Notes: a model not told the origin generated them from the letters alone. Shown: positions 22,519 through 56,439, counted from the first letter of the stretch. The stretch: DNA of 64,000 nt from Escherichia coli (GCA_902500205.1 GCA_902500205.1_4868.1), one strand, 5' to 3'. Numbers and translations: made by a program.

Positions 22519-22541
22519 GAGATATATATTACTTAGGTGAG
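22519..22541 (+). promoter_or_regulatory. recurrent promoter-like motif GAGATATATATTACTTAGGTGAG
   Basis: Member of a 6-copy motif family GATATTA(T/C)CT..GTGA upstream of plus-strand genes. Confidence 0.4.
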
Positions 22542-22591
22542 CGTTACACGTTAACGCTTTAATCGACTATTACCCAGAAGGAGTATTTACA

Positions 22592-22990
22592 ATGACTAAC
22601 CAACTACGCCAAGACCCGTTTGTTGCCATGATGCTTTGTGCTAAAGCCGAGAGCAACGAAGCCGATTTAATTCGTCTGTTGACTGATGACGAATACCTTA
22701 TCTCCGAGCGCGATAAACGTTTAAAAGAACTCTACAAGCCAGAAACCGGTGAATCGCTCGGCAATCAAGACGCCTGGAAGTTTCTTATTCTTGTTGCTGA
22801 TGAAACGTGGCGAGCAAAAAATCCCATCGTCTGTGATATTACAGACCTACCGTACAAATACGGCGGACTCATCACTAGCGACCAGCACCTTAAAGCGTTC
22901 TTTGTTGGTGAAGCAATGCAAGAACTGCAAGATGTTCTTATTACAGCAACGGACACTTTGAAACGTTTGCGCGCCGAGCAGCTAATCTGA
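22592..22990 (+). CDS. hypothetical protein (132 aa)
   Basis: ATG preceded by conserved leader TTAATCGACTATTACCCAGAAGGAGTATTTACA. Confidence 0.65.
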   Translation: MTNQLRQDPFVAMMLCAKAESNEADLIRLLTDDEYLISERDKRLKELYKPETGESLGNQDAWKFLILVADETWRAKNPIVCDITDLPYKYGGLITSDQHLKAFFVGEAMQELQDVLITATDTLKRLRAEQLI

Positions 22991-23044
22991 TCTCTCAAAA
23001 ATCACGAATCGTACAAATCCTTTGACTGTGTAGGAAGGAATAAA

Positions 23045-23434
23045 ATGAAAATCGCAGAGGGGTTAGTAGATGCGTGCAGAGACCCATTCACGCTGTGGGT
23101 TCTTTGTGGCTTGCGCCGAGACGATCGTTTCGGTGAGTTTGTTCGAAATCCAGATGCTTTACTAAGCTTCGTAGAAAGCGAGGAGAAGCGTTTAGAGGAG
23201 ATTAAAGAGGAAAGTAGTACCCTTACACCAGATATGGTGGTTTATAGCCGTATGACGTCACACAGGTGGCGTACGACCCATCGGCTGAAGGGAACCTCAA
23301 TGAAGGAATTGATTGAAGGGTTATCAAAGGCGCTTTCGTCTGATAACATTATCTGGCCGGTGTTGTATACCAACGAAGACCATTCTGATAACGTGAAGGT
23401 TACACTGACACGTTGTTATCACACATTCTCGTAG
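23045..23434 (+). CDS. hypothetical protein (129 aa)
   Basis: ATG with AGGAAGGAATAAA leader. Confidence 0.65.
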   Translation: MKIAEGLVDACRDPFTLWVLCGLRRDDRFGEFVRNPDALLSFVESEEKRLEEIKEESSTLTPDMVVYSRMTSHRWRTTHRLKGTSMKELIEGLSKALSSDNIIWPVLYTNEDHSDNVKVTLTRCYHTFS

Positions 23435-23468
23435 TAGTTAATCGACCATTACCGTAAGGAATATTTAC

Positions 23469-24140
23469 ATGCAGGGCACTGAACTCAACAAACTTTGGGA
23501 AAAACTGGTTCGTCAATTCCGCGACTTCTATCGATATACCGATAGCGCGCATCGCATGGATCACATCAACTCAGTTAAATCAAATGCGATTCGTATCGCG
23601 TATATGCTTGGGCAAACCGAACACCTGAAGCTGATACTGATTGCGGTGGCAGCTCACGATATCTTCTCTACCAAAGAAGACCGCGCGTCACACCACATCA
23701 AAGGGTATAGCTGGATACTGGATAACAAGCCAGTGCTCAAACGTAAGTATAAACTTACCGATGATGAATGTTTGACGATTGCCCATGCAGTCTTAGAACA
23801 CCGCAGTTCTCACAAAGGGAACTACAACGGGATTGTCTCTGAGATAGTTGCCGCAGCTGACCGCGGTATACCGTCTGTAGATGACGTGAGCAATTACATG
23901 CACCGTTCTTATCTGTTTGCCCGTGAACAGGGTAAAAGTAAAGGCGATGCAAAATTCCATGCCGTTGGTCACGTCCAACAGAAGTTCGGACGCAACGGTA
24001 TTAGTAATGTCCCTAGTTGGTACGGTACGCTCTTCGCAGAGCGCATTCTGGAACGCAGGGATTTCGTGGAGCAGCTAGATATTAGCTATTTCACAGATAC
24101 CATTATCGACGACCTCGAAGCTCGTCTTTCACACGATTAA
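23469..24140 (+). CDS. hypothetical protein (223 aa), weak HD-domain-like H...HD pattern
   Basis: ATG preceded by conserved leader TTAATCGACCATTACCGTAAGGAATATTTAC; HRMDH and AAHDIF motifs. Confidence 0.65.
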   Translation: MQGTELNKLWEKLVRQFRDFYRYTDSAHRMDHINSVKSNAIRIAYMLGQTEHLKLILIAVAAHDIFSTKEDRASHHIKGYSWILDNKPVLKRKYKLTDDECLTIAHAVLEHRSSHKGNYNGIVSEIVAAADRGIPSVDDVSNYMHRSYLFAREQGKSKGDAKFHAVGHVQQKFGRNGISNVPSWYGTLFAERILERRDFVEQLDISYFTDTIIDDLEARLSHD

Positions 24141-24166
24141 TCACACTGACCTTAAGGAATATTAAG

Positions 24167-24655
24167 ATGGCTGAAGTAACTTCAATGAAAGCACTGCACA
24201 AACTGATCGCTGAACTGGACACGCCGGCAGCAACCCTGTCCGAAGACCTGGCGCTGAATGCTGAGCCGCTGGTTAAGATTTACGAAGAAACACTCCCCGT
24301 AACGAAAGTTGGGGATGTGGACTATCGCTTCACACTGGAAGACGCGGACGCTCTGCGACAGCACGACGCAAACTTCACTGAACTGTTCGGTGGCATTGCC
24401 GGTGGTCTGATTGCTGACCGTGCGAAAGCGGATAGCGAAATCGGTGCACTGGACTTAACGCTGGATATCGGTAACGCAGCATTCTCTACCGTGTTCTCTC
24501 GCCCGGTTACTGAAAACCCAACTCAGAAAGAATGGGCAGCGTCCATCTCTTACGGTTACGGTTCTCCAAAGTCTAAAGCGTTGGAAGGCAAGCTGCGTAA
24601 AGAGTTTGCCAAGTCCATGATGGCAACTGATGAAGAAGACGAAGACGACGAATAA
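24167..24655 (+). CDS. abundant small acidic protein (162 aa, C-terminal DEEDEDDE)
   Basis: Conserved leader plus AAGGAAT RBS; codon usage strongly skewed to CTG/CGT/GGT/AAC. Confidence 0.75.
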   Translation: MAEVTSMKALHKLIAELDTPAATLSEDLALNAEPLVKIYEETLPVTKVGDVDYRFTLEDADALRQHDANFTELFGGIAGGLIADRAKADSEIGALDLTLDIGNAAFSTVFSRPVTENPTQKEWAASISYGYGSPKSKALEGKLRKEFAKSMMATDEEDEDDE

Positions 24656-37561: not shown

Positions 37562-37584
37562 GGCGCTAAACCTCTAAAAATTTA

Positions 37585-37615
37585 CGGATATATGTTATCA
37601 TACTGAGAGTATACC
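37585..37615 (+). promoter_or_regulatory. promoter-like motif (weaker family member) GGATATATGTTATCATACTGAGAG
   Basis: Resembles the GATATTAtCT..GTGA family; lies in a divergent intergenic region. Confidence 0.3.
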
Positions 37616-43636: not shown

Positions 43637-43706
43637 GGCTTTGTAGCTCAGGTAGGTAGAGCAGCCTCTTCGAGGAAGGTCGCCGGTTCGAGACCGGTCA
43701 AAGCAA
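43637..43706 (+). tRNA. degenerate tRNA-like element (possible pseudo-tRNA)
   Basis: Canonical D-arm (TAGCTCAGGTAGGTAGAGCA) and T-arm (CCGG-TTCGAGA-CCGG) but mismatched anticodon stem, 1-nt variable loop and G1-A72 mismatch. Confidence 0.3.
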
Positions 43707-43782: not shown

Positions 43783-44161
43783 GCCCCATTTGTGTTATCC
43801 TTATCCCGAAGGCATTCGAAATAAGACGCGTATCCACACACGGGTCAAGGGTAACACGAACCACTTCCGCGGTCACCGTGTCCATTGCCGCCTACCTGCA
43901 TGGGCTGTCCTCCGACACGGTGACTTCGGGCCAACTTACAGGCCAGGGCTGTTTGGGTTTTTCTTACGCATCCATCCAGAGCCACCTCGCGCCCTAGTCT
44001 GTATACCCCTTTTCTGTTCCTGGTTTGCCAACTAAATCAATTAAGCCTGGTGCGTTGCCCTGGGAACAGAAAAACTTATTCGGTTACACACCGAACCCAC
44101 CCACGAGGGATATGTCGTGGACCACCAATAGAAGCAGCAATAGTAGTAAGAAGGAAGCAAC

Positions 44162-44983: not shown

Positions 44984-45073
44984 ATTAGCTAACGCCCAGT
45001 AGCTATGTTCCTGACGATTAGCCCTCGTCTGACCTTGTAAGACCTTGTAGATTTACATGCCAACACCAGGGAA

Positions 45074-45116
45074 GTCCTCACTCTTCGGAGTGAGGACAAC
45101 TCTTTTATTTTTTTTG
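45074..45116 (+). terminator. intrinsic terminator
   Basis: GTCCTCACTC-TTCGG-AGTGAGGAC followed by long T-run. Confidence 0.7.
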
Positions 45117-45132
45117 TATTCCAAATATACAC

Positions 45133-45154
45133 AGATAGATATTACCTAAGTGAG
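45133..45154 (+). promoter_or_regulatory. recurrent promoter-like motif AGATAGATATTACCTAAGTGAG
   Basis: Family member; about 55 nt upstream of ATG at 45207. Confidence 0.4.
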
Positions 45155-45206
45155 ATGAGAAAGCCTCATCTGAATTCTCCCAACTCGACTATAAAAGGTA
45201 TGCATC

Positions 45207-46157
45207 ATGTACAGACCAAGTAATCCTAGCGCTATCGAAGGATTAAACCAGGATGGCTTCAGCCTCGCAGAAGCAACCCGCATTCGACCTTTCTTACCTC
45301 GCAGATTCTTCCCTTTCGGTTCGTTATACAGAACGAACTTTGACGCCTGGGAAGCGATACGTGCTGTAAAAGATGCACTACAGTACAAGAACTTCGAATT
45401 CCGATTTGTGTTCAAATGGGGCAACGGCGAATTGCTCCACTACTTCGGATTCCAACAGAACGAGTTTATTGAGTATACCTCACCTACGTACCACACCAGG
45501 TTCTTAAGTATCGAATTCGTTCGCCATTTCGGCGATGCACTCTTTACGGAACGTGCGGCAGATGAAAACCATGGACGTAGGCTGGTGTTAACGAACGGTG
45601 GATTACGCATCAAGATGAATCGTTTACGGGAAGCGTATAACCAGCTCATCAATCCTGAACCGGTAATGTTTCCAACAGTCGCAGATTTGAACGTTACACC
45701 ACTCCAGCTACCTGTGGATATAGACAAACCGATCCTGGCAATCAGAGCACTGCAGGCAGGTTACGCAAACTGGTATAAAGGGCACAGTCTCCCGAACACC
45801 AGATTGAACATCGAACCGTATGAGTTGTGTTTATTCTTAACTCTACGCAAGCGGTTTGAGCCAGATAACTTAGACTTACGTTATCTGGCTAAAACAGATA
45901 GCGGTAGTTACTACCCAACGACCTGGATGCTAGCGGCTGTACTACCCGGCGGTGAAATTATCGGTAACCCTGTCACCGATGTTCAACAGTTACCATCACC
46001 GTTAGCACCACCGAAGGATTCAATCTATCCATACGCTTCGTGGTACGCGAGTAGTATTGGCGTGAGGTGGTTGATGTTACACGTTCCCGAAGAGGTCTAT
46101 AATTTATTCCCGCATGAGCAATGGCTCCGTGCGTATGAAATTCGGTTTGGTTGGTAG
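45207..46157 (+). CDS. hypothetical protein (316 aa)
   Basis: ATG with AAAAGG upstream. Confidence 0.75.
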   Translation: MYRPSNPSAIEGLNQDGFSLAEATRIRPFLPRRFFPFGSLYRTNFDAWEAIRAVKDALQYKNFEFRFVFKWGNGELLHYFGFQQNEFIEYTSPTYHTRFLSIEFVRHFGDALFTERAADENHGRRLVLTNGGLRIKMNRLREAYNQLINPEPVMFPTVADLNVTPLQLPVDIDKPILAIRALQAGYANWYKGHSLPNTRLNIEPYELCLFLTLRKRFEPDNLDLRYLAKTDSGSYYPTTWMLAAVLPGGEIIGNPVTDVQQLPSPLAPPKDSIYPYASWYASSIGVRWLMLHVPEEVYNLFPHEQWLRAYEIRFGW

Positions 46158-46168
46158 TCGATGCTTTT

Positions 46169-46202
46169 GAGGGAACTTCGGTTCCCTCTTTTTTTCTTTT
46201 TT
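46169..46202 (+). terminator. intrinsic terminator
   Basis: GAGGGAAC-TTCG-GTTCCCTC followed by TTTTTTTCTTTTTT. Confidence 0.7.
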
Positions 46203-46238
46203 CACGACTGCCTCAGAATCTTATAGGAGGAAGTTACC

Positions 46239-46655
46239 ATGATTACGCAGTGCTATTACCAGACGCAAGATTTATTTAAAGCATTGGAAGAAAATAAGTT
46301 ACCCACGACTTTAAGACCGCAGTGCAGTTATTCAAGAATGCTTGCAAGTGAGGTCTTTCCGGTGCTAATGCAGTTGCCTCAATTCCAACCGTGGCTCGAC
46401 TCGCTAGATGTGGTAGATGTTGTGGCTATCTACACTGGGTCAGACACACCAACAATAAATACAAGCGAGTGTTTATCCCGTAGCGAATCGTCGGTGTTAA
46501 ATGAAATGCCGCAGCTAATGCCTTCTTTATTCGATTCGATGTGCGCTGCAGTTATGCAGAAACGACTACCTTATGAGGAAGTATTCGCCATTGTGTTAGA
46601 CAGCATCCACGCAATGAATTATAAACACTATAAAACCCTCGGAACTTTACACTGA
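46239..46655 (+). CDS. hypothetical protein (138 aa)
   Basis: ATG with AGGAGG upstream. Confidence 0.65.
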   Translation: MITQCYYQTQDLFKALEENKLPTTLRPQCSYSRMLASEVFPVLMQLPQFQPWLDSLDVVDVVAIYTGSDTPTINTSECLSRSESSVLNEMPQLMPSLFDSMCAAVMQKRLPYEEVFAIVLDSIHAMNYKHYKTLGTLH

Positions 46656-46722
46656 CTTTTTTACGGCAGGCACCTATCTTGTAGGGAGTCTGTGCTGTAA
46701 TAGATTCCAAAGGAGATGCTCG

Positions 46723-47112
46723 ATGAAAAACAAACTGCGTCCGCTGGACGTGATTATGGCGCATCCGGATACCCTCAAGAAAATTAAAGTGGTCAACGAA
46801 CTTGACCGTGGTCTCCTGGATACTATTCAATGGGGTTTTACTTTCCACCCCGATGAAGAGAACAACACGCGTCAATTAGATGTCTGCGACGGCGTAGAAA
46901 TCGATTGGTCTTCTAACGAAGGCTTTGATGATGTCGTCGATTATGTTAAACAAGCCACCGTTCCGCCTGTGTTCCCAGTAGCGGGTTTAGCGGAACACAC
47001 AATTTCTCTCCGCCGACTGGTTAACGCTCAACCAGAAATCGTGCGTGAAGGTGAAGCGTGGACGTCAGGCATTACCCACCATCTTAAGGATGTGTTGGGT
47101 GTTGCCGGTTAA
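46723..47112 (+). CDS. hypothetical protein (129 aa)
   Basis: ATG with AAAGGAG upstream. Confidence 0.65.
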   Translation: MKNKLRPLDVIMAHPDTLKKIKVVNELDRGLLDTIQWGFTFHPDEENNTRQLDVCDGVEIDWSSNEGFDDVVDYVKQATVPPVFPVAGLAEHTISLRRLVNAQPEIVREGEAWTSGITHHLKDVLGVAG

Positions 47113-47121
47113 AAAAGAAGA

Positions 47122-47166
47122 AGTACCTCTACGCGAGTAGAGGTACGGAATCTTTCTTTTTTTTGT
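47122..47166. terminator. bidirectional intrinsic terminator
   Basis: GTACCTCTAC-GCGA-GTAGAGGTAC with A-run upstream and T-run downstream between convergent genes. Confidence 0.65.
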
Positions 47167-47978
47167 TACGACTTGAAGCGTCCACCGTTCATGTAGTTCC
47201 AACGGTTTCCGATGTTGTCGTTGTGGACCAGACAACGTTGCATTTTCGGCAAGGTGTCTTCGAACATTTGACCCGCGTCCGAGTAACCTTCAATAACGTT
47301 TCTGAAGGCACCGAACTCCATACCATTTTCCAGTTTACCGGAGTCCATGTCGAAGATCATGGTGTTGTAGATATATTGCTTAACAGCCATAACTGCCAGC
47401 TCACCTACAACCGGATAGAAGGCCGGCTTGATTTCGTTCATCTCCTGGGATAGTTCGTACTTCACCACGAGTTTGGTAGAGTAAACGAACATGCCTGGGT
47501 CTTTGATACGGATGGTATTCGGACCGAGCACTTCAACTTCTGGTGAGGCGATACGCGGCATCGCGGATTGACTATCAACCACTTGCTGGGTGGATGCTAA
47601 TACGCCAGAGGTGGCACCGTCCAGATATGAACCTGCGGGAGGCATGGTGTACGCCTGTCCGGCAACGGGTGTTACAGAGATATGGGCGTCCAGAATTGGG
47701 CGACCACCTGTTTTGATGTCGTCGAGATAATACACGCGACTGAAATAATCTTGCGTGTCGTTATCCCAAGGAACACCTTGCAAATCTACTTCTTGATACT
47801 GCCCCATTCTGGAGATTTCAGGGACCAGAATTTCACGAATAACGCGTTGTTGAATTTCGTTATCTACAGAGCTTGCAATTCCCAGTAACTTGAGGTTTTC
47901 TGGAACAAAAGCCGCCTGTAGAATCGGGGCAGGGATATGCTGTCTGATTTTACGCAGACAGTAGTCGATAACATTCAT
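47166..47978 (-). CDS. hypothetical protein (about 270 aa)
   Basis: Track ORF 47166..48008 begins with TTG; ATG 10 codons in (MNVIDY) has AGGAG 8 nt upstream. Confidence 0.7.
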   Translation of the reverse strand: MNVIDYCLRKIRQHIPAPILQAAFVPENLKLLGIASSVDNEIQQRVIREILVPEISRMGQYQEVDLQGVPWDNDTQDYFSRVYYLDDIKTGGRPILDAHISVTPVAGQAYTMPPAGSYLDGATSGVLASTQQVVDSQSAMPRIASPEVEVLGPNTIRIKDPGMFVYSTKLVVKYELSQEMNEIKPAFYPVVGELAVMAVKQYIYNTMIFDMDSGKLENGMEFGAFRNVIEGYSDAGQMFEDTLPKMQRCLVHNDNIGNRWNYMNGGRFKS

Positions 47979-48098
47979 TCTAAGGCTCCTATGAAGCTCG
48001 TAGGACAACTCATACCATCGGGTAATGCTATCCCATTACCTGACATTAAAATACGTTTTACGACCTTTATGTGCGCACCATACTCGAAGAAATTTTGC

Positions 48099-48118
48099 AT
48101 AGATATTATCTTCGTGAA
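48099..48118 (+). promoter_or_regulatory. recurrent promoter-like motif ATAGATATTATCTTCGTGAA
   Basis: Family member; about 25 nt upstream of operon start at 48142. Confidence 0.4.
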
Positions 48119-48141
48119 TTATCCTTAAGGAGCATTTCTCG

Positions 48142-48462
48142 ATGACGCGCATGTTCTTTAATTTCTCTCCAGGGACAAATGAACAGATTGTGCCTGCGGA
48201 CATGTTACTGTGCGCGATACAAGAAGTTATTTATCCCGGCACGCATGAGTTTCCACGTGAGTGGACACGCATTGCCGAAAGTTATTTTGGCACGGAAGCG
48301 TGGTTTGTTATTTCGGCGTTGGGCCGAAACCATCGCTATCCCTTTCATTACAAAAATGGAGTTGTGCAAACGTGGTCAGAATATACCTCGAACCAGCTGC
48401 GGTTCATTCTAGCTTCTGGGGGCCTGTCGATGCTTCCCAGTACGCTACCGCTCTGCGGATGA
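48142..48462 (+). CDS. hypothetical protein (106 aa), first gene of translationally coupled operon
   Basis: ATG with AAGGAG upstream. Confidence 0.6.
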   Translation: MTRMFFNFSPGTNEQIVPADMLLCAIQEVIYPGTHEFPREWTRIAESYFGTEAWFVISALGRNHRYPFHYKNGVVQTWSEYTSNQLRFILASGGLSMLPSTLPLCG

Positions 48463-49022
48463 GCCAAAAAGAACGCGAGATGTTAACTGTACAACTGTTA
48501 CACACTGCGCTCGAAGATATCTTTTACTCCGTTCCGGAAATGCCTAATGCACGTATGGAACCTTTGCTGGAACCTTATACTGACGCTTTTAATCTCACGA
48601 TGATGTTGGTGGCTGACCAGATCATACTCCCACCGAAAACAGTTCCTGTGGAACGTACATATGTTTCCAGTGGCGGTTTGGGTGCCCCGGTTAATAAGAC
48701 GAAAGAGACCGTAGCGATTTTACGTTCTACCGAATATCTTATCGGATTGGCATTCGAAGACTGTTACAACAGTTTCCTGGACAGTATCCATGCACTTGTG
48801 GAGAATGCTGTGAAGGCCACCAACCAGCCGTTTAATCGTTATGCGACGATTAAACTGGAACCACACATAACCCATCGTGGGCAGGTGCAATCTCTGGAGT
48901 TGCAAATTGGAGAAGACATCAGATTCATCCACTACCGCCAGTGCTTCCCAAACAAACGATATCGTCCGTCTGGTACTGATCGATCACATCGCCTCGACGG
49001 CATACGTCAGGATATTGAATGA
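48459..49022 (+). CDS. hypothetical protein (about 187 aa)
   Basis: Track ORF 48261..49022; ATG at 48459 overlaps upstream stop (ATGA). Confidence 0.6.
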   Translation: MSQKEREMLTVQLLHTALEDIFYSVPEMPNARMEPLLEPYTDAFNLTMMLVADQIILPPKTVPVERTYVSSGGLGAPVNKTKETVAILRSTEYLIGLAFEDCYNSFLDSIHALVENAVKATNQPFNRYATIKLEPHITHRGQVQSLELQIGEDIRFIHYRQCFPNKRYRPSGTDRSHRLDGIRQDIE

Positions 49023-49035
49023 CCCCAGCGACATC

Positions 49036-49344
49036 ATGTTCAGCATGTATGATGTTAATACGGGGTTGAAGCATATCATTCTCTGTATGCTCGAATACAT
49101 GATTCCGACATTTACAGAACACGGTACGTGGGACGTAGAAACAGTCTCACTGATTGTTAGGTGCTATCGTCCCAGAAGTCATTCGCGGGAAATCCACACC
49201 ATCGCGTCTCACGTTCATCGTGCTATCTGTGAGGAAATGGGCATTCCTCCGAAAGGGTATCGGTATCATTATAATCAAGCAGACAGAATTCTCCGTTTCA
49301 TTCCACGTAAGGTAACAGATGTCTATGATGACGGTTTATACTGA
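49036..49344 (+). CDS. hypothetical protein (about 102 aa), start uncertain
   Basis: Track ORF 48877..49344 overlaps previous gene; first ATG past overlap is 49036. Confidence 0.4.
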   Translation: MFSMYDVNTGLKHIILCMLEYMIPTFTEHGTWDVETVSLIVRCYRPRSHSREIHTIASHVHRAICEEMGIPPKGYRYHYNQADRILRFIPRKVTDVYDDGLY

Positions 49345-49726
49345 GTTCGTGCGATTGACTTGCCGACTCACCGCACTCGTCAAAGAGAATCTCGGCATCG
49401 ATTACCAGGATGCTGCGGTAGAGCTTGACGACTATATCGAGCAAATTGTTCGGTTGCATGTTCTGCGGAAAAAATATGGCGTTATCGATAGCATGATACG
49501 CCAGTTCTTTATGGAGTATGTTCACGATAACCCAATCATTACTCCAACCACGTCGGCAAAATACTGGGCTCTTTGTCGATTTGAGTTGTTGATACGGGAC
49601 ACCGATTGCATCTGGCAAGCAATCGACGAGGACATGACTTATTTACCACAATCCGACTTCCTCCTTTGGCATGTAGGAGATGGTGTCTGGAAAATGTTAA
49701 CTACAGGGGTTACTTACAATGATTGA
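49319..49726 (+). CDS. hypothetical protein (135 aa)
   Basis: Complete ORF in operon. Confidence 0.6.
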   Translation: MSMMTVYTEFVRLTCRLTALVKENLGIDYQDAAVELDDYIEQIVRLHVLRKKYGVIDSMIRQFFMEYVHDNPIITPTTSAKYWALCRFELLIRDTDCIWQAIDEDMTYLPQSDFLLWHVGDGVWKMLTTGVTYND

Positions 49727-50228
49727 GCGATCTCATTTTTATATCCCCGGCTATCAGTTATTGGCTGGGCCGTTAACGGAGTTTTCGCCAAACGATGTGC
49801 TCCGCGAAGTGAATGACGATTTGAACTCGATAATCAATACCGCCATGAGCTTCGTGGAACGTGGAACCATTGGTAGTGAGTTAAAGTTTATGATGAACAA
49901 TACCTTTGGGTTTGTTTCTCGTACACTGAATGCGCACGGCGTTGTGTTGGAAAATGAGCAAGTAATCACTTACGGCACCGCAATTCAAAACATCGGTCGT
50001 GCGTATATGACCGCCGTATCGCAGTCTCCTTATTGGTTTACTCACTACGGTCGTTGGGTCGGTGCACAATACACAACGCGCAATCCGGCGGATGTCGAAT
50101 TCTTATTAGACTATAACGGTGGTGATAAATTCCCACAGTTTGCCAGCCAGGAAGCGTACGAGCGAATCACCCCACAACTTCTGCCTGTTATCGATTTGCT
50201 TATCGGTAATCTCGGAGGTCGTGTATGA
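49719..50228 (+). CDS. hypothetical protein (169 aa)
   Basis: 8-nt overlap with upstream gene. Confidence 0.65.
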   Translation: MIERSHFYIPGYQLLAGPLTEFSPNDVLREVNDDLNSIINTAMSFVERGTIGSELKFMMNNTFGFVSRTLNAHGVVLENEQVITYGTAIQNIGRAYMTAVSQSPYWFTHYGRWVGAQYTTRNPADVEFLLDYNGGDKFPQFASQEAYERITPQLLPVIDLLIGNLGGRV

Positions 50229-50713
50229 GCGTTCTGTTTGATGTGGCGGATATTGCGAACCAATATAGCGCGACTCGGTTTTACGAGCATGTTCGTGAAG
50301 CGGCATTGCGTGTACTGGAAGCCAGTAACCTGGAGATTGATGAAACACAGATACGTGATTTTTATCAACGTTTTGCGTTTGCGTATATCATCGGTGTGAA
50401 AACTCGTGACCCTTCGACGATGGTTGATTTGTTACAGGAAGACACGCTTGAACCTCTGGGCAATTGGGAGTTGGTGTCCGATGGTCTGTCCGTTGACCAG
50501 TTCGCTAAGGAAACGTCTGTCGATACGACGTTTCTGGCAGCACAAGGTTCGCCCGAACAACATCAAGCCGCCTTCGGCGCTGCGGTAAGTTTGCTGGCCG
50601 AAGAGTTAACAAACTTAACTGGTTTTGCTGGGCTGATAGAGTCGCTGTATCCGGGGCGATATCAAACGTATGTGGGTGATAGTTTTAACGATGTGGTGTT
50701 AATCTGCGAATGA
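50225..50713 (+). CDS. hypothetical protein (162 aa)
   Basis: ATGA stop-start overlap. Confidence 0.65.
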   Translation: MSVLFDVADIANQYSATRFYEHVREAALRVLEASNLEIDETQIRDFYQRFAFAYIIGVKTRDPSTMVDLLQEDTLEPLGNWELVSDGLSVDQFAKETSVDTTFLAAQGSPEQHQAAFGAAVSLLAEELTNLTGFAGLIESLYPGRYQTYVGDSFNDVVLICE

Positions 50714-51141
50714 AACTGTACATGACCATAGGCGAAGTCTTCAAATATGAGTCGTTGTTGGCACGGGCCGAGATTGCTGATACTAGCGAGATCGAGCCCG
50801 CTGTCGCTTATTTGTTTCTGGCCAGTTACGCCGAATTAACGGTACGTTCTATTGTTAATGGGCTAGGTAAGGGTAAGAACTTTCTTACTTTTATTCCCCC
50901 AGACCCTGCGTTGATACTGGAACAGTTGCGCGGGATGTGGGGTACTGAAAAGGTGCTGCCTCTAAACTGCTACAGCATGAGCAGTGGGATTAAGGATGAT
51001 GTTCGGTTCTATGAAATCCTTTCCGTGATAGAACGTGTGTGGGGCATGGCTGGCTTGACTCCAGAAGACGGAGCAAAAAAGACAAAGGTTTCACTCCTTA
51101 TGAATGAAATTGGCAACGCACTCATCTGTGTTGAATGTTAA
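50710..51141 (+). CDS. hypothetical protein (143 aa)
   Basis: ATGA stop-start overlap. Confidence 0.65.
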   Translation: MKLYMTIGEVFKYESLLARAEIADTSEIEPAVAYLFLASYAELTVRSIVNGLGKGKNFLTFIPPDPALILEQLRGMWGTEKVLPLNCYSMSSGIKDDVRFYEILSVIERVWGMAGLTPEDGAKKTKVSLLMNEIGNALICVEC

Positions 51142-51150
51142 GGAGTACGA

Positions 51151-51750
51151 ATGATCTACAAGGTGATCGCCAACCACTTGATTAATGTGGACTTGGGGGT
51201 CGTGGGGTATCTTCCGGACGGTATGCGGTTTTTGGATTTGGTGGTTGACACCGTAGTCCGCCTACCGCGTATCACCGTGGAGATACCCGTAAAAGAATTG
51301 GACCAGGACGAGATACACGAACTTATACGTGAAACGCTGACTAGCTATACGTACGAGTTTCGTTGCATGTTGCCTCGCACCGACCTTACGTTCTTGCACG
51401 ACTTCTTTACGTTACTGACTGACGAGTACCGTCGGTGGAAGTTTAATGTTGCAATGGAAGCCAGCACTGAGTCACATTTTAACGGGCTGACACCATTGTT
51501 AGATTTAGCGTTGGTGTACAAAGAGCAAGACAGTTCACACTGGGCCACGCTCAAGCACTACACGTTGGATCTAATGGCGACCGCCGTAACGGAGGCAGTT
51601 ATGGCGCATTATGTTGAGCCGGTGAAGATGTTCTTAGAGGCGCATAATGGCGCTATCCGTACGTTGGTTCTCAAGGTGGACTTCCCGAAAACACCAGTGA
51701 CCAATGCTTTGGATATGAGGCTGCTTATTGATGTTCCTGAGGAGGAATAA
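51151..51750 (+). CDS. hypothetical protein (199 aa)
   Basis: ATG with AAGGAG upstream. Confidence 0.7.
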   Translation: MIYKVIANHLINVDLGVVGYLPDGMRFLDLVVDTVVRLPRITVEIPVKELDQDEIHELIRETLTSYTYEFRCMLPRTDLTFLHDFFTLLTDEYRRWKFNVAMEASTESHFNGLTPLLDLALVYKEQDSSHWATLKHYTLDLMATAVTEAVMAHYVEPVKMFLEAHNGAIRTLVLKVDFPKTPVTNALDMRLLIDVPEEE

Positions 51751-52160
51751 TGTTCGATTTACGCACACTGGTCGCTGGGCAAAAAGTTAACATTGTTTAC
51801 GACACCCCTTTGAAAGGGCAAGAGACGCGTGTAATTATTCTGGCAACCGGCGTTGGCTATGAAATGGCCAAAAGCTATATGGATGTGATGGCGGAGCAGA
51901 AGAATATCTACTCATCCATCGTCTCTCAGCCAGAAGATAACGTGAACAAATACACGTATCTGATTTTCAAAGGTGTTGACGGCAAACCAAAAGTCGCTGC
52001 CGATGCCTGGATTCGTGATGTTCAGATTATCGAAAACACGAAGGTGCGCTTCACCGTCACCCTGGATAACAAACAGGAGATTGACGACCTTAAACGCGCC
52101 CTGGCTGCCAATGGTTTCAATGATGTCGATTTTGAAATCGTTGAGAGCATTGCCGGTTAA
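51750..52160 (+). CDS. hypothetical protein (136 aa)
   Basis: TAATG overlap; GAGGAGG RBS. Confidence 0.7.
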   Translation: MFDLRTLVAGQKVNIVYDTPLKGQETRVIILATGVGYEMAKSYMDVMAEQKNIYSSIVSQPEDNVNKYTYLIFKGVDGKPKVAADAWIRDVQIIENTKVRFTVTLDNKQEIDDLKRALAANGFNDVDFEIVESIAG

Positions 52161-52164
52161 AGTA

Positions 52165-52202
52165 ATCCCACTCTTCGGAGTGGGTTATTTTTTTTTCTTT
52201 TT
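52165..52202 (+). terminator. intrinsic terminator closing the operon
   Basis: CCCACTC-TTCGG-AGTGGG followed by TTATTTTTTTTTCTTTTTT. Confidence 0.7.
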
Positions 52203-52251
52203 TCACGTATCCCGCAAGTCTTATAGCTGAGTAAAAACCAAGGGGCCAGAC

Positions 52252-54531
52252 GTGGACTACAATTCACCATTTCGTCTTAGTCAAGACGAGTATCATCGCG
52301 ACATTGACGTTATCGATGCGTACTACGAACAACTGGCGCTCTACATTCATACCGTCACCAACGGGAAATATTCTTTGGAGTTCTGTCGACAGCAGGTCGA
52401 AGAAATGTTCCAACCTGGTGGTGAGTTAGTACACGAATTCCCCGTGTGTAAGATGTGGGTGCGCAATCAAAAGACCGGCGATCGCGAAGAAAAATACACC
52501 ACGGTAGATAAACTGTTCCGTACAGTGATTGATAAGCAGATCATTTCTGCACCGTCGTTGACTTTCTATTTGCCGGAACACGTAAAGCGTTCTAAGCTTG
52601 CCGAATTTACCGCAGAGAACGTGCGTAAGCGTGCGGTGGTTAAGAAAGAGATGTATGCGGCCGGTGCTGCAGGCAACGAAGTTTTACGTATTAACAAAAA
52701 GAACGAACAGAACGCTGTTAAAACGCTGAACAACGGGATGTCTGGTGCATTCTCATCACCGTACACGGTAATCTTTAACCAGTCTTCGCACTCTGTATTG
52801 ACGTCAACCTGCCGTACGGCTACATCGTTCGGTAACGCGGGCAACGAACGTCTACTGGGCGGTAATCGTCACTACGACACGCCGTCCCGTGTTATCGACC
52901 ACTTACTGTCTATTGGTACACTGACTAACTTTGCGGAGTTCAAGAAGTGTATGGAACTCTATAACCTCCACTACCCAACAGTGGACGAGGTTATGGAAGT
53001 GGTTATGTACTCTGCAGAGTTTTACTTCCGTAACGACGAAGGGCTGGAGTTCATTCGTCACTACGTCGGTAATTGTAGCCCGCTGGTACGTGCAGCGTTT
53101 GTCTACATGGGTGACTTCTACCACCTGGCGAAATACAACGATGAATTCATGCGCGGATTTATCGGTGCGCTGATTGCCGAGGAGATGGAAGACGAGATCA
53201 CCGATTGGGATGCTGCTGAGCGCTCTATCGACGGTGACATGCAGATCATTATCTCGCAGTTCCGTACTGATATCGTGCCGTTAGGTAAGTCGTTCTCTGA
53301 CGTTAAACTCAAAGACGAAAACACGAACAAAGCGGAACCGTGGGATAAGCAGGAAAAATACAAAGAGCTGATTCGCTCAGCTGTGTATCTGCAGAAAACC
53401 ATCGGTAAGTACGCGTGCTTGATTCGTAATATCCTGACCACCAAAAACCTGCCAATCAACATTGCCAGGATGCCTGATGTGGTTCGTCGTGTTGGCGTGG
53501 TGTCTGATACCGACTCCACGATGATGACTGCACAGTGGTGGGCGCAGTGGTATACCGGTCAACATTACGGTCGTGAAGCTACGCGCGTATCGGATGCGAT
53601 GATTTATATCGCAACCCAGCACTTACGTCATCTGATGGCGAGTATGTCGGCGAATATCGGTGTGGCGAAAGAGCGTCTGTTTTTGTACGCAATGAAGAAC
53701 GAATTTAAGTTCGACTCCTTTGCGTTAACCACGAAAGCAAAACACTATTTCTCCATCATCACTGGCCAGGAAGGGCAGTTGAAGTCTGACCCTGAGTTAG
53801 AAGTTAAGGGCGTGTCTTTACGTACGTCGAACATTCCTCCGGTGGTCATGAAAGAGTTCAAACGCACGATCAAAGAACTCTGTGAGATCGTGGCACGTGG
53901 TGACAAGATTAAGATTCTGCCTCTGCTGGAAAAGGTTGCTGCAATTGAGCACGTTGTGGTGGACTCTATTCGTGCTGGTAAAGCAGGCTACCTGAAAACA
54001 ACCAACGTCAAAGACCGTAGTGCGTACTCTGAAGATGATGAAAAGAGTTACCACTACCACCGCATGTACAACGCTATCTTTGGACCGAAGTACGGCTACC
54101 TGGACGAACCGCCTTATGACGCCGTGAAGCTTCCGGTAAACCTGGAGAACAAAACAGCCGTTAAAGAGTGGCTGGAAAACATTAAAGACCCGATGATTAA
54201 GACCACCGCAACACGGTGGTTCGAAGAAAACAACTATCGTACCTATCGTACTCTGATACTGCCAGAGTTCCTGGTGGAAAACTTCGGTATTCCGCCGGAG
54301 CTGATTGATGCTGCAGACACACGTCGAAGCGCATTCTCCACAGTAGAACCTTACTATCACATTCTGGAATGTCTGGGTGTGTTCATGATGGACAAGAATA
54401 GAACTCGTCTGCTTTCGGATTACTACGGTGAGTCTGTAGATTCCGTCAAGGAAGAATTAGGTAGTGGTGAGTACGTTAAGAAATCTGAACGTGATGGAGA
54501 GGAAGAAGATGGGGAAGAAGCGGAGGAGTAA
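52252..54531 (+). CDS. hypothetical protein (759 aa)
   Basis: GTG start with AAGGGG 6 nt upstream (no in-frame ATG upstream); long ORF. Confidence 0.8.
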   Translation: MDYNSPFRLSQDEYHRDIDVIDAYYEQLALYIHTVTNGKYSLEFCRQQVEEMFQPGGELVHEFPVCKMWVRNQKTGDREEKYTTVDKLFRTVIDKQIISAPSLTFYLPEHVKRSKLAEFTAENVRKRAVVKKEMYAAGAAGNEVLRINKKNEQNAVKTLNNGMSGAFSSPYTVIFNQSSHSVLTSTCRTATSFGNAGNERLLGGNRHYDTPSRVIDHLLSIGTLTNFAEFKKCMELYNLHYPTVDEVMEVVMYSAEFYFRNDEGLEFIRHYVGNCSPLVRAAFVYMGDFYHLAKYNDEFMRGFIGALIAEEMEDEITDWDAAERSIDGDMQIIISQFRTDIVPLGKSFSDVKLKDENTNKAEPWDKQEKYKELIRSAVYLQKTIGKYACLIRNILTTKNLPINIARMPDVVRRVGVVSDTDSTMMTAQWWAQWYTGQHYGREATRVSDAMIYIATQHLRHLMASMSANIGVAKERLFLYAMKNEFKFDSFALTTKAKHYFSIITGQEGQLKSDPELEVKGVSLRTSNIPPVVMKEFKRTIKELCEIVARGDKIKILPLLEKVAAIEHVVVDSIRAGKAGYLKTTNVKDRSAYSEDDEKSYHYHRMYNAIFGPKYGYLDEPPYDAVKLPVNLENKTAVKEWLENIKDPMIKTTATRWFEENNYRTYRTLILPEFLVENFGIPPELIDAADTRRSAFSTVEPYYHILECLGVFMMDKNRTRLLSDYYGESVDSVKEELGSGEYVKKSERDGEEEDGEEAEE

Positions 54532-54644
54532 GAATAAGTCACGATCGTGTGTACCACAAACAATAACCGTTACGTGGGTGGACCCAGCACCGGTACCGAC
54601 GGCGCTACTCAATCTTTGGTTATCTTATCTAAAGGATGAACATT

Positions 54645-54917
54645 GTGTCGAAACGAAACAGTAAAGCAAATAACTGGGGCTGGCGACAGCTCTATTTGCA
54701 CAGCCAGCCTAACCTGGTACGGCAGCATGTGTTGTCTTTGCCGACGCAGTTTCAAACAATGGCATCGTGTGAAGGTTCAGTATCGCCACGCGATGATCGT
54801 TGGAAAACCGTGAAACCGGTTGTGTCTATTGACAAGCAATTTGACAATCCTCTCGACGGTTGGTTTGCAGCAATAGGCGGTTTAAACGTACGGGTGGAAG
54901 GGTATGTATCGAAATAG
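54645..54917 (+). CDS. small hypothetical protein (about 90 aa)
   Basis: Track ORF 54636..54917; GTG at 54645 has AAGGA 8 nt upstream. Confidence 0.35.
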   Translation: MSKRNSKANNWGWRQLYLHSQPNLVRQHVLSLPTQFQTMASCEGSVSPRDDRWKTVKPVVSIDKQFDNPLDGWFAAIGGLNVRVEGYVSK

Positions 54918-55101
54918 TGGGAAGTCCACAGAGATGATAACCGCAATCCGTCGCGACCTCGAAGAACGAGGTTGTGTGGATATTGAGTTGCATCAGGCAG
55001 GCGAAACGGTGCATATCACGGCATTGGATGCCAAACGGAAACGTAGCATCACTGTGTGGGGTAAACCGTACGCAAGTGATCTCACGGAGACGATAAAATA
55101 G
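54904..55101 (+). CDS. small hypothetical protein (65 aa)
   Basis: ATG with GAAGGG upstream; followed by terminator. Confidence 0.4.
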   Translation: MYRNSGKSTEMITAIRRDLEERGCVDIELHQAGETVHITALDAKRKRSITVWGKPYASDLTETIK

Positions 55102-55110
55102 TAGACAGAC

Positions 55111-55156
55111 AAAAAAAATAAAAAAAAGAACTACACACCGAAGTGTGTAGTTTTTG
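55111..55156. terminator. bidirectional intrinsic terminator
   Basis: A-run, hairpin CTACACAC-CGAA-GTGTGTAG, T-run; between convergent genes. Confidence 0.65.
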
Positions 55157-55204
55157 TATATAGTATGAATACTCGAAAGAGTGTTCGCGAGGAGAGAGTA
55201 AGTC

Positions 55205-56272
55205 TTATTTTTCTTCTAGCTCTGTCATCAACGGGATAATCAAATCGCGTTGGATGAAGTTATAGAAGGATTTGGTCAAACGTGTGAGGACTTTAGAGTC
55301 CACATAACGCGCCAAATCAACCAACATCGTACGTTTGTGTTTCTCCATATTCCCCTGGTTGTATTGAAGACAAAACAGTGCCCAGTACCAGTTCACCATG
55401 TTCTGGTGCCAGGTGTTCTGCAGTGTTTGACCTGGTTCTCGAAAGACAATCAGTTCCAGTGCAGTGTGGCCTTCTTCATCAGGGTGTTGGAAGAACAATG
55501 GGATGTTGTTTAAGACTTGTCCCGGTAACGGGTTGGCAGCCAGTAGTTTACTACGGATGCCTTTTGCGTGCTTCACAGCTAAAGCTTGAAGCGGCGGAAC
55601 AGGAATGACACGTAATGTTTCATCCGGTTCAATCTCTTTCCCGAAGGCTATCGCACGATGTATATTTACAAAGGCGATATCCATGTAGCTCGGCAACATG
55701 CGAGAGATCACATGTCGTTGGAGATACACAGGTGTGGCAATAGGTTCGGTACCGCGACTGTAGTGCTGCTGGCCTTTGACATATTGCCAAAGCAAAGCAA
55801 CCAGGTTGATTTCGATCACCGTAACACCTCGGGGCCGTCCGTCACCGAACTTCCAATTGAGGTTGGTATACTCATGGTAGAGGTAACGGGCGGGGGTGTA
55901 GTCGCGGAACGAAAGGTCTGGATTTACTGGGCGGGCTACGAGAGAGATTACCTCATCTTGGCCCTGGATAAACTTGCTATTAAAGATTTGACCGTACTCA
56001 CCAACAGACGTCAAGCGTAAGGCGTTACCGATCTGAACAAGCTTGCGACGGCAAGCCCATTCGATGTCTTCGTACTCTGGTTCACCGGCATAGCCGATGG
56101 CAGACAACACCTGTTGCAACAAATGGCCATTACCAGCACTGCGATTAAGCTGTTCGAAGTAGTTGCGTATACGCTGGCTGTTGTTTTTTACGTGAGCCGC
56201 TAATGTTATAGCGGAGGGGTCCGTGCTGTGACCCTTTATGGCCACTTGGTTTAACTCGGCTTGGCTGAACAT
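55205..56272 (-). CDS. hypothetical protein (about 355 aa)
   Basis: Track ORF 55205..56293 begins with GTG; ATG at 56272 has TAAGGAG 6 nt upstream. Confidence 0.75.
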   Translation of the reverse strand: MFSQAELNQVAIKGHSTDPSAITLAAHVKNNSQRIRNYFEQLNRSAGNGHLLQQVLSAIGYAGEPEYEDIEWACRRKLVQIGNALRLTSVGEYGQIFNSKFIQGQDEVISLVARPVNPDLSFRDYTPARYLYHEYTNLNWKFGDGRPRGVTVIEINLVALLWQYVKGQQHYSRGTEPIATPVYLQRHVISRMLPSYMDIAFVNIHRAIAFGKEIEPDETLRVIPVPPLQALAVKHAKGIRSKLLAANPLPGQVLNNIPLFFQHPDEEGHTALELIVFREPGQTLQNTWHQNMVNWYWALFCLQYNQGNMEKHKRTMLVDLARYVDSKVLTRLTKSFYNFIQRDLIIPLMTELEEK

Positions 56273-56323
56273 GGCAGACTCCTTAGATTCCACATAGGAA
56301 GTCAGTCACAGTCAAAAATATCT

Positions 56324-56348
56324 CAGATTGATATTATCTATGTGACAG
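56324..56348 (+). promoter_or_regulatory. recurrent promoter-like motif CAGATTGATATTATCTATGTGACAG
   Basis: Family member upstream of the abundant 617-aa protein gene. Confidence 0.4.
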
Positions 56349-56419
56349 TTCCTGAGAAATGTCTGGACTATGTGCCTTGTAAGTAAGCGACGGCGTACTT
56401 GCATTCCATGGAATTACAG

Positions 56420-56439
56420 GCAGATATTATCTCTGCGAA
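56420..56439 (+). promoter_or_regulatory. recurrent promoter-like motif GCAGATATTATCTCTGCGAA
   Basis: Second copy about 40 nt upstream of ATG at 56479, followed by conserved leader. Confidence 0.4.

Follow-up and report, generated by a model that had tools for sequence, protein, structure and literature searches.

Six copies of a repeated element in a 64,000-nucleotide stretch of DNA (hereafter the window) very probably serve the virion RNA polymerase of an SPN3US-like, nucleus-forming jumbo phage as early promoters; I put the probability of this reading at about 0.85. The window belongs to an SPN3US-like jumbo phage (Seoulvirus, Chimalliviridae), with 97–98% identity to Escherichia coli phage EC001 and Salmonella phage SPN3US. 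The promoter type is already known from phage phiKZ, and the six window sites are elements of that known kind. The analysis shows that the motif is significant, conserved, biased in strand and position and in register with its phiKZ counterpart, and it identifies the genes downstream.

All six related sequences reported in the preliminary description of this DNA are present, and all lie on the plus strand, with ATATTAY cores starting at 22526, 37592, 45139, 48103, 56331 and 56424. The element is longer than the 20–25 nt given there, spanning ~37 nt. The copies, each with its score and that from an independent matrix (see below), and two associated terminators are as follows.

22505–22541, + strand: motif copy 1, core ATATTAC at 22526–22532, GTGA at 22537–22540; 44.4 bits, independent matrix 40.4
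37571–37607, + strand: motif copy 2, degenerate core ATGTTAT at 37592–37598, CTGA at 37603–37606; 28.4 bits, independent matrix 32.8
45118–45154, + strand: motif copy 3, core at 45139–45145; 44.9 bits, independent matrix 43.4
48082–48118, + strand: motif copy 4, core at 48103–48109; 41.0 bits, independent matrix 37.0
56310–56346, + strand: motif copy 5 (P1, distal of the chimallin pair), core at 56331–56337; 42.6 bits, independent matrix 36.7
56403–56439, + strand: motif copy 6 (P2, proximal of the pair), core at 56424–56430, GCGA at 56435–56438; 32.5 bits, independent matrix 28.2
22454–22500, + strand: intrinsic terminator before copy 1, a hairpin and T-run ending the upstream late-gene block
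45074–45107, + strand: intrinsic terminator before copy 3, a 10-bp stem with 6 G-C pairs, then a T-run

Copy 1 lies directly 3′ of a terminator hairpin (22454–22486; −18.3 kcal/mol, z-score −4.25, with 0 of 200 shuffles folding as well), and upstream of a unit of ACQ60_gp017 to gp012 orthologues whose first ATG is at 22592. Copy 3 is also directly 3′ of a terminator (45074–45097), which is invariant in a four-phage alignment, and precedes the ACQ60_gp261 orthologue (ATG 45207). The earlier statement that the copies usually sit just after a terminator holds for these two of the six, but not for the remaining four, which are found in divergent intergenic regions. Copy 2 has the ACQ60_gp003 orthologue (ATG 37634) 42 nt downstream, and copy 4 has the ACQ60_gp257 orthologue (ATG 48142) 39 nt downstream, at the head of a small-gene block running to a terminator at 52167–52184. 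Copies 5 and 6 precede the chimallin ATG (56479) by 148 and 55 nt, respectively. Measured from the positions in the preliminary description, five of the sites lie 43–74 nt ahead of the start codon and the one at 56324 lies 155 nt ahead, rather than the 25–110 nt given there. Copy 6, with a weak or missing upstream A-tract, and copy 2, with its degenerate core, may differ in strength or class.

The full motif reads ATTCAAAAA-n-TTTCAGATA(G/T)ATATTA(C/T)CTnnGTGAG. It is asymmetric, with the A-tract block ATTCAAAAA followed by the TTTCAGATA block, the core (G/T)ATATTA(C/T), and GTGA four bases past the core. The consensus from 19 seed sites, none of the seed sets including copy 2, is A.TC.AAaaaaTtTcAGATAg plus the core, with a T-rich block near −20 and an A-rich block near −30 in fixed register; the core is invariant or nearly so across these sites. 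In the window, four copies have ATATTAT, and the other two ATATTAC or ATGTTAT. Motif discovery on the intergenic DNA of SPN3US, a check akin to one proposed in the preliminary description, recovers the motif: in an unbiased comparison of intergenic with coding DNA, the enriched 8-mers ATATATTA, AGATATTA, GATATTAT and TATATTAC rank right behind T-runs and ribosome-binding sites.

The significance of the window copies was assessed with a short pattern and a long matrix. The short pattern GATATTAYCTNNGTGA, allowing at most one mismatch, has four matches in the window (45138, 48102, 56330 and 56423) against a mean of 0.04 in shuffles, where four matches were reached in 0 of 100. The copy at 22525 has two mismatches to this pattern, and that at 37585 has four but is rescued by its conserved upstream flank, scoring 28–33 bits with the long matrix. 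An independent matrix was trained on 17 SPN3US sites only, none of them within the part of that genome homologous to the window. Its top six matches in the window are exactly the six sites (43.4, 40.4, 37.0, 36.7, 32.8 and 28.2 bits), and those that follow come from the palindromic core on the reverse strand, at no more than 15.5 bits. The top score in each of 100 Markov-1 random windows averaged 7.7 bits, with a maximum of 15.5 bits.

The distribution of the motif in SPN3US supports promoter-like behaviour, as had been proposed. A matrix scan finds 24 plus-strand sites at 10 bits or more, versus 0.7 expected per random genome, and all 24 are co-oriented with the next gene, 39–274 nt ahead of it. 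An equal frequency inside coding regions, named beforehand as evidence to the contrary, is not seen: 23 of the 24 sites are intergenic, in a genome whose intergenic share is 6.4% (P about 7e-27), and the window has no motif copies inside coding sequence. None of the 22 first downstream genes in SPN3US is structural (Fisher P 0.007).

Intergenic regions are ~90% conserved overall in close relatives, and footprinting is therefore informative only across genera. Five other phages, representing four further genera, carry orthologous sites: SPAsTU, pEa_SNUABM_29, phiEaH2, Huxley and CR5. All five have sites orthologous to copy 4, and copy 6 is likewise kept in 5 of 5 other phages compared, while copy 3 is kept in SPAsTU, pEa_SNUABM_29 and phiEaH2. 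The tandem pair ahead of chimallin is kept in four further genera, and an alignment of the chimallin upstream region from five phages of five genera shows conservation mainly at the two motif copies.

The genes that bear on the function of these sites are the following.

56479–58332, + strand: chimallin (ChmA/PhuN) gene, for the 617-aa phage-nucleus shell protein, assigned by predicted-structure match
58415–60366, + strand: non-virion RNA polymerase subunit gene with a group I intron (PHROG 2987 'RNA polymerase beta subunit', E 5e-155)
11601–17438, + strand: two virion RNA polymerase subunit genes, orthologues of SPN3US gp240 and gp241, 537 and 1401 aa (98% identity to SPN3US 'RNA polymerase beta subunit' genes)
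19267–19989, + strand: virion RNA polymerase beta′ C-terminal subunit gene, orthologue of SPN3US gp244 in the original numbering (98.9% identity to ACQ60_gp022)

Two copies do precede the 617-aa gene, as was described earlier (its product being called abundant was a guess), and the predicted structure identifies this gene as chimallin. Searched against the PDB with Foldseek, the AlphaFold2 model (pLDDT 78, pTM 0.81) has chimallin or PhuN as each of its nine best matches (E 2.6e-19 to 5e-16; TM-score 0.6–0.7), and the next has an E of 0.013. Sequence-level searches with the protein (Pfam, phmmer and hmmsearch against the PDB, BLASTP) gave no chimallin identification. The gene order around it is that of phiKZ gp50 to gp55, with chimallin adjoining the non-virion RNA polymerase subunit gene, and SPN3US gp244 is named chimallin in PMC9365700. 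The exons of the polymerase gene were mapped by blastn to SPN3US, and its intron (59763–60084) matches RF00028 with 69.4 bits. Because no terminator lies between the two genes, the first one being at 60970–60983, they are likely co-transcribed.

The gp240, gp241 and gp244 orthologues indicate that the window phage encodes a multisubunit RNA polymerase of the virion-packaged type. The beta′ C-terminal subunit assignment of SPN3US gp244 (original numbering) is from the literature (PMC5694885, PMC7598289); ACQ60_gp022 carries the SPN3US annotation 'virion structural protein'. In SPN3US, the gp240, gp241 and gp244 products are packaged in the virion and the virion polymerase is essential, amber mutants in its subunit genes gp218 and gp244 giving non-viable particles without any of the five subunits (PMC5694885). 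There are no motif copies upstream of the gp240 and gp241 orthologues in the window, and the nearest upstream site to gp240/gp241 in SPN3US is more than 20 kb off.

A comparison with phiKZ links the motif to a characterized promoter class. Early promoters of phiKZ comprise 28–32 sites read by its virion RNA polymerase (PMC7598289 summarising Ceyssens 2014; PMC8244752; PMC10914365), and its early transcripts are made independently of the host RNA polymerase and of new protein synthesis (PMC7598289, PMC13282480). An AT-rich motif near −10 occurs upstream of early operons in every jumbo phage that encodes an RNA polymerase, and wherever tested it is an early promoter independent of host polymerase and protein synthesis (PMC7598289, PMC13282480). 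In phiKZ 1–50 kb, seven plus-strand TATATTAC sites, picked from the sequence and text descriptions of the published early class, are laid out ATTCAAA-N13-TATATTAC-N4-(G/T)TGA. Flank-only similarity between the window motif and these sites peaks at 6.4 at shift 0, and is at most 4.0 at other shifts. The best match of the SPN3US matrix in the same region scores 30 bits (null maximum 20.5), 80 nt upstream of gp54, the chimallin gene, for which Wicke et al. reported an early promoter with a primary start site (PMC8244752).

By analogy with phiKZ, the polymerase, start sites and early timing in the window phage would be as follows; a literature search found no transcript 5′ ends, timing or in vitro transcription for any Seoulvirus. 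A five-subunit virion-packaged RNA polymerase, three of whose genes are in the window, would enter the cell with the DNA and bind the six sites without host sigma factor or newly made protein. Transcription would start ~6–8 nt downstream of the core, in or beside GTGA, going by the descriptions of phiKZ and 201phi2-1, to give leaders of ~25–55 nt, except for one of ~135 nt begun at the distal promoter of chimallin. The resulting units would comprise a small-gene block including an HD-domain protein (from 22592), the gp003 and gp002 orthologues (from 37634), the gp261 to gp259 orthologues (from 45207), and a small-gene block beginning with the gp257 orthologue (from 48142), while the tandem pair would drive chimallin and the non-virion RNA polymerase subunit. 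Products of this kind are what a nucleus-forming phage needs first. Between the two enzymes offered in the preliminary description, a phage polymerase and a phage-modified host polymerase, the former is the better choice, given the encoded virion polymerase and the register match to phiKZ.

Chimalliviridae possess two phage polymerases, and the sites might be middle or late promoters for the non-virion enzyme, or be read by both, although I consider this unlikely. In SPN3US, non-virion polymerase genes lie 39–2276 nt downstream of a site, whereas virion polymerase genes lie 5.7–22 kb from the closest upstream one. Since the non-virion polymerase cannot make its own first copy, the presence of its genes behind sites (the ACQ60_gp232 orthologue at 39 nt, and the chimallin–polymerase unit) speaks against it as the reader. 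The phiKZ chimallin gene does have early and middle start sites (PMC8244752), the window chimallin also has two sites, the proximal one without the A-tract, and some AR9 genes have early and late promoters (PMC7598289). However, the published descriptions of the phiKZ middle motif (TACT at −22, or a weak AT-rich stretch around −24) and late motif (TATG where transcription starts) differ from this one (PMC7598289, PMC8244752), in no case is a structural gene directly behind a site, and the register match is to phiKZ TATATTAC sites that fit the published early-class description.

It is still less probable that the host RNA polymerase with sigma-70 uses these sites as strong early promoters, in the manner of T4, recognising TATTAT/TATATT as the −10, a weak −35 in TTCAAA, and an UP-like element in the A-tract. 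The resemblance to sigma-70/T4-type promoters lies in an AT-rich −10-like hexamer, an A/T-rich upstream region and early genes behind: TATTAT in the core matches TATAAT at 5 of 6 positions and TTCAAA matches TTGACA at 4 of 6, copy 5 reads TGaTATTAT, like an extended −10, and the sites are AT-rich and upstream of genes. Some host-polymerase activity may occur on such a sequence (TATTAT, with TTCAAA 15 nt upstream). TTCAAA stands, however, 13–15 nt from the −10-like hexamer (15 being the best by eye) rather than 16–18, and a consensus scan with 16–18-nt spacers calls none of the six sites, in agreement with the earlier remark that the motif does not resemble sigma-70 spacing. With 21 sigma-70-like matches against 26.8 expected, the window shows no enrichment of them, and the most conserved positions, AGATA and the downstream GTGA, fall outside the hexamers and are not read by sigma-70. 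In addition, phiKZ early transcription from sites of the same architecture is rifampicin-insensitive (PMC13282480, PMC7598289), and SPN3US particles without virion polymerase are non-viable (PMC5694885).

Least probable of all is that the element serves chiefly as an operator bound by a dimeric phage regulator, or as some other non-promoter repeat, built on the palindromic core AGATA-T-TATCT (which yields the reverse-strand echoes in the matrix scan) or on a ACCTAGGT subclass (6 times in intergenic and 0 in coding SPN3US DNA), as conservation is strongly asymmetric (A-tract and TTTC upstream, GTGAG downstream), a symmetric operator needs no such bias as 24 of 24 co-oriented plus-strand sites, and the phiKZ counterpart retains TATATTAC with the palindrome lost. 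A dual role is compatible with these observations: the promoter could double as the binding site of a shut-off factor.

Early promoters read by a virion polymerase have parallels in several phages. In N4, early transcription is also begun by a polymerase injected with the DNA, but the N4 virion RNA polymerase is a single-subunit enzyme recognising a DNA hairpin, while the window phage enzyme is multisubunit and the motif lacks such a stem-loop, since only 1 nt is left for the loop of its AGATA-T-TATCT palindrome. The Bacillus jumbo phage AR9 has an over-represented AT-rich motif ahead of early operons, read by its virion polymerase, which was first predicted bioinformatically and later confirmed by dRNA-seq and primer extension (PMC5312081). 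Early transcription in AR9, as in phiKZ, is reported to begin immediately, to resist rifampicin and to require no new protein synthesis (PMC7598289, PMC13282480). Unlike the window phage, AR9 has uracil-containing DNA and no phage nucleus, and its consensus differs according to a review that describes the motif as 'different from phage to phage' (PMC7598289). In 201phi2-1, the early promoters obtained by ONT-cappable-seq, with only six sites mapped experimentally, have an AT-rich motif ~10 bp upstream of the start, before hypothetical early genes (PMC11512511). Their −10, −20 and −30 regions are conserved, and the window motif, judged by that description, has the same three-block layout.

The closest parallel is phiKZ, despite several differences. 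It infects Pseudomonas rather than Enterobacteria and belongs to another genus, its chimallin is only ~13% identical, and its start sites and timing have been measured, whereas those of the window phage are predicted. The Seoulvirus consensus favours AGATAG/T ahead of the core and CTnnGTGAG behind it, often with T rather than C as the last core base, and chimallin here has two early-type copies, while the second start site in phiKZ is described as middle-type (PMC8244752). Common to both are the core, TATATTAC or (G/T)ATATTA(C/T), with ATTCAAA/AAAAA 13 nt ahead of it, a T-rich block and AGAT just before, and TGA four bases past. In both phages the sites are intergenic, co-oriented and upstream of non-structural operons, with one before chimallin in a syntenic locus.

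All six sequences named in the preliminary description are present in the window where it had placed them, and I take them to be early promoters read by the virion-packaged RNA polymerase (vRNAP), with a probability of roughly 0.85. The starts of their ATATTAY-anchored cores, and the RNA polymerase genes found in the same DNA, are as follows.

Motif cores and RNA polymerase genes in the window
22526, plus strand: core of motif copy 1
37592, plus strand: core of motif copy 2
45139, plus strand: core of motif copy 3
48103, plus strand: core of motif copy 4
56331, plus strand: core of motif copy 5
56424, plus strand: core of motif copy 6
11601-13214: vRNAP subunit gene
13233-17438: vRNAP subunit gene
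19267-19989: vRNAP subunit gene
58415-60366: subunit gene of the non-virion RNA polymerase (nvRNAP)

The short pattern originally proposed, GATATTAYCTNNGTGA, has four matches at one mismatch or fewer, against a mean of 0.04 in dinucleotide shuffles (0 of 100 reach four). The copy at 22525 departs from it at two positions and that at 37585 at four, the latter being accepted solely because its upstream flank is conserved. With three mismatches allowed the pattern proved too noisy (15 matches, 7.7 expected), and a 37-column matrix was used instead. The first matrix was seeded with orthologues of the window's own sites, and was therefore retrained without them, on 17 sites of Salmonella phage SPN3US lying outside the window-homologous region. 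This independent matrix returns the six sites as the window's top six (43.4, 40.4, 37.0, 36.7, 32.8 and 28.2 bits) and no other match above 15.5 bits in the whole window; in 100 random windows the best score averages 7.7 and peaks at 15.5. Since exactly six sites come out on top, the set reported from the sequence includes every copy in the window and no false one.

By similarity, the window belongs with the genus Seoulvirus, whose members are phiKZ-related jumbo phages of 240 kb. In a megablast search of phage genomes, positions 44000-60000 align over their full length, at 97-98% identity, to Escherichia phage vB_EcoM_EC001, SPN3US and relatives. The SPN3US RefSeq annotation was transferred to the window by blastn; its SPN3US counterpart runs from ~199.7 kb to the end of the record and on from the record start to ~23.3 kb. 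The window also contains head, tail and terminase genes and a DNA polymerase gene.

Several further features were observed in this DNA. A nearly pure A/T, palindromic block of ~96 nt (39983-40078, centre ACCTTTAGGT) lies within a 2.3-kb gene-free stretch (39288-41628), at the place where the SPN3US GenBank record starts and ends. Alternating CG direct repeats, ACGCGTGCGCGTGCGCGC, border it on either side (39937-39961 and 40080-40104), as do GATC sites; it may serve as an origin of replication or have a function in packaging. ARAGORN and Rfam agree on a tRNA-Trp (anticodon CCA) at 42213-42288. Rfam alone gives another, weak tRNA-like match (43637-43706, 36.4 bits), which is annotated 'tRNA-OTHER' in SPN3US and overlaps a small annotated reverse-strand ORF. 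The nvRNAP subunit gene harbors a group I intron (Rfam RF00028, 69.4 bits for a gathering score of 50) at 59763-60084 on the plus strand, the intron region being listed as 59763-60138 (+); blastn to SPN3US, which has no insertion at this position, gives exons at 58415-59781 and 60139-60366. The phiKZ orthologue, gp55, is reported to have an intron (PMC11512511).

For motif statistics, the whole SPN3US genome was assembled with its 264 annotated genes. Motif discovery over the intergenic regions of a full genome, the check initially suggested, recovers the motif: an unbiased comparison of intergenic and coding 8-mers yields ATATATTA, AGATATTA, GATATTAT, ATATTATC and TATATTAC, ranking next after terminator T-runs and ribosome-binding sites. 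When all ATATTAY occurrences are listed, 19 plus-strand sites share a far longer pattern, with the consensus A.TC.AAaaaaTtTcAGATAgATATTAtCTa.GtGAg and ~36 bits of information. Scanning with the matrix identifies 24 plus-strand sites at 10 bits or more, of which 23 reach at least 24 bits and five are outside the seed set; random Markov genomes have 0.7 sites per genome at this threshold, and a maximum of 15 bits. The few minus-strand matches are echoes of the palindromic core AGATA-T-TATCT. All but one of the 24 sites are intergenic, in a genome that is only 6.4% intergenic (P about 7e-27), and every site is co-directional with the next gene, whose start follows 39-274 nt downstream. Of the 22 genes that come first after a site, none has a structural annotation, compared to 51 of 264 genome-wide (Fisher P 0.007). 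The single intragenic copy, at 25232 of SPN3US and outside the window, is in the 3' part of the ACQ60_gp236 orthologue coding sequence, ~270 nt upstream of the next gene.

The arrangement of the polymerase genes bears on which enzyme reads these sites. It is quite improbable that the motif is read by nvRNAP, whose own genes are located behind motif sites (39, 1991 and 2276 nt downstream in SPN3US), so that this enzyme cannot be the one that reads them first; published descriptions of the phiKZ middle and late motifs also differ from this motif. For the vRNAP genes of SPN3US, the distance to the closest upstream site is 5.7-22 kb. That the sites are sigma-70 promoters read by the host polymerase is highly improbable. 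As the preliminary description had noted, they do not fit the -35/-10 arrangement: none of the six is picked up in a consensus scan, the most favourable hexamer pair found by eye is separated by 15 nt, and the most strongly conserved positions are not those that sigma-70 reads. Sigma-70-like matches are not enriched in the window either (21, 1 and 8, for 26.8, 2.2 and 8.3 expected). A symmetric operator, suggested by the palindromic core, was rejected, as the asymmetric flanks and strict orientation speak against it. Literature searches found no transcript mapping for SPN3US-like phages, and literal full-text searches for TATATTAC and GATATTATCT returned unrelated papers only.

The statement that the motif usually follows a terminator stands for two sites out of six. 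Intrinsic terminators are directly 5' of copies 1 and 3, with hairpins at 22454-22486 (-18.3 kcal/mol, z -4.25) and 45074-45097, and the statement fails for copies 2, 4, 5 and 6, which lie in divergent intergenic regions. Other terminator-like hairpins are found downstream of the promoters, inside or ending plus-strand gene runs, and none was seen in the window between the chimallin and nvRNAP subunit genes. The small hairpins after copies 1 and 3 are no better than shuffles (z -1.2 and 0.0) and are not claimed as a feature.

Terminator-like hairpins and leader elements in the window
39295-39320: terminator-like hairpin
46169-46188: terminator-like hairpin
52167-52184: terminator-like hairpin
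60970-60983: terminator-like hairpin
22561-22572: leader element, (A)ATCGACTAT(T/A)A
45183-45192: leader element, (A)ATCGACTAT(T/A)A

Some early leaders, forming a subclass, carry the leader element, with AATCGACTATTA, between the promoter motif and the start codon, 21-28 nt before the latter. This accounts for seven of the eight CGACTAT occurrences in SPN3US intergenic DNA. At two SPN3US sites, 165693 and 167512, promoter and element have a terminator-like hairpin between them, so that the element may be a signal of its own, serving as another class of promoter or acting on translation or stability. The whole cassette (5' hairpin and AATCGACTATTA) could be an unrecognised second signal, namely a middle-class promoter or a translation/stability element; in the latter role it could act on the immediate-early mRNAs that are transcribed within the early infection vesicle.

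Copies 5 and 6 form a tandem pair before the gene for a 617-amino-acid protein, as had been pointed out. The sequence-level route to the identity of this protein failed, and only fold comparison worked: it has no match in Pfam or in the PDB (phmmer and profile hmmsearch), matches only an unannotated family in PHROGs, and reaches E 0.67 against phiKZ gp54 in BLASTP. An AlphaFold2 model, generated from an alignment of 28 homologues (pLDDT 78, pTM 0.81), matches only the chimallin/PhuN structures of Goslar, 201phi2-1 and phiPA3 (E 2.6e-19 to 5e-16, TM-scores 0.6-0.7), with the next hit at E 0.013. The locus is syntenic with that of phiKZ, with DNA polymerase, small genes, one reverse-strand gene, shell protein and RNA polymerase subunit, and SPN3US gp244 has been named a diverged chimallin (Laughlin et al., PMC9365700). 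The modeled fold, the synteny and the published assignment identify the protein as chimallin, so that the tandem sites precede the gene of the phage-nucleus shell protein.

SPAsTU and Erwinia phage pEa_SNUABM_29 have sites at orthologous positions. Footprinting among these and SPN3US was uninformative, with whole intergenic regions ~90% identical, and phiEaH2 (Erskinevirus), Huxley (Machinavirus) and CR5 (Derbicusvirus), which also have orthologous sites, were therefore used instead; the window's chimallin shares 63%, 53% and 44% identity with theirs. The window's phage and each of the five relatives compared with it keep the tandem pair. When the region upstream of chimallin is aligned across five phages (74% mean identity), conservation is highest in the two motif copies and the two ribosome-binding sites, while the spacer between the copies diverges and has a deletion in CR5. 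In phiEaH2, Huxley and CR5, one copy lies upstream of each of the orthologues of ACQ60_gp257, gp236 and gp232 (nvRNAP subunit), and the gp236-internal copy is also retained (positions L010:21470; L011:21295; L012:21204).

The first 50 kb of phiKZ contain seven plus-strand TATATTAC sites, each upstream of a plus-strand gene, with the layout ATTCAAA/AAAAA-N13-TATATTAC-N4-(G/T)TGA; one precedes the chimallin gene, gp54, by 80 nt. The sites were chosen by the 8-mer alone and only their flanking columns compared with those of the 23 SPN3US sites; the two sets are most alike at shift 0 (6.4), none of 24 other shifts exceeding 4.0. The best match of the SPN3US-trained matrix in this region is the chimallin-upstream site, at 30.0 bits (random sequence: mean best score 11.8, peak 20.5). 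There are also two motif-like sites upstream of the phiKZ chimallin gene (45365 and 45569), paralleling the tandem pair of the window; of these, the distal site scores less (17.3 bits), and its sequence, AAAAATACT, resembles the published phiKZ middle promoter (an A-rich repeat, then TACT).

The core and block spacing are thus common to Pseudomonas phiKZ and the enterobacterial Seoulvirus, Erskinevirus, Machinavirus and Derbicusvirus, across which the chimallins have diverged to ~13% identity, and the vRNAP promoter may be of ancient origin and have hardly changed since. A joint reading, in which such a near-frozen promoter goes together with a clade-fixed chimallin tandem pair, a gp236-internal copy and a leader cassette, appears unlikely as a whole.

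With the matrix, early transcription units of SPN3US-like phages can be located (24 sites in SPN3US, six in the window) and host-takeover genes predicted among the unannotated small genes; it also supplies defined promoters usable for phage engineering or in vitro vRNAP testing. The phiKZ-identical core and spacing, and the tandem pair, would be helpful for understanding how the sigma-less vRNAP recognises DNA.

Published descriptions of early promoters fit the layout of the phiKZ and SPN3US sites, the phiKZ sites being taken here from the sequence and matched through text descriptions. [quoted passage not shown] A core at about -13 to -6 would place the T-rich block at ~-23 to -21, the A-tract at ~-30 and the start in GTGA. 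Such promoters are established for phiKZ, 201phi2-1 and AR9, and according to Sokolova et al. (PMC7598289) a bioinformatic search can recover a motif of this kind from every jumbo phage that encodes RNA polymerase. The six sites thus represent, correctly recognised, a class already described, and they leave the current picture of jumbo-phage transcription unchanged. Three small additions are made here: the in-register identity with phiKZ, the conserved chimallin tandem pair, and the leader element. Early motifs are said in the review literature to vary between phages (PMC7598289), to which the present comparison makes a modest addition: between Seoulvirus and phiKZ, very distant genera, the core and the spacing of its flanking blocks are identical.
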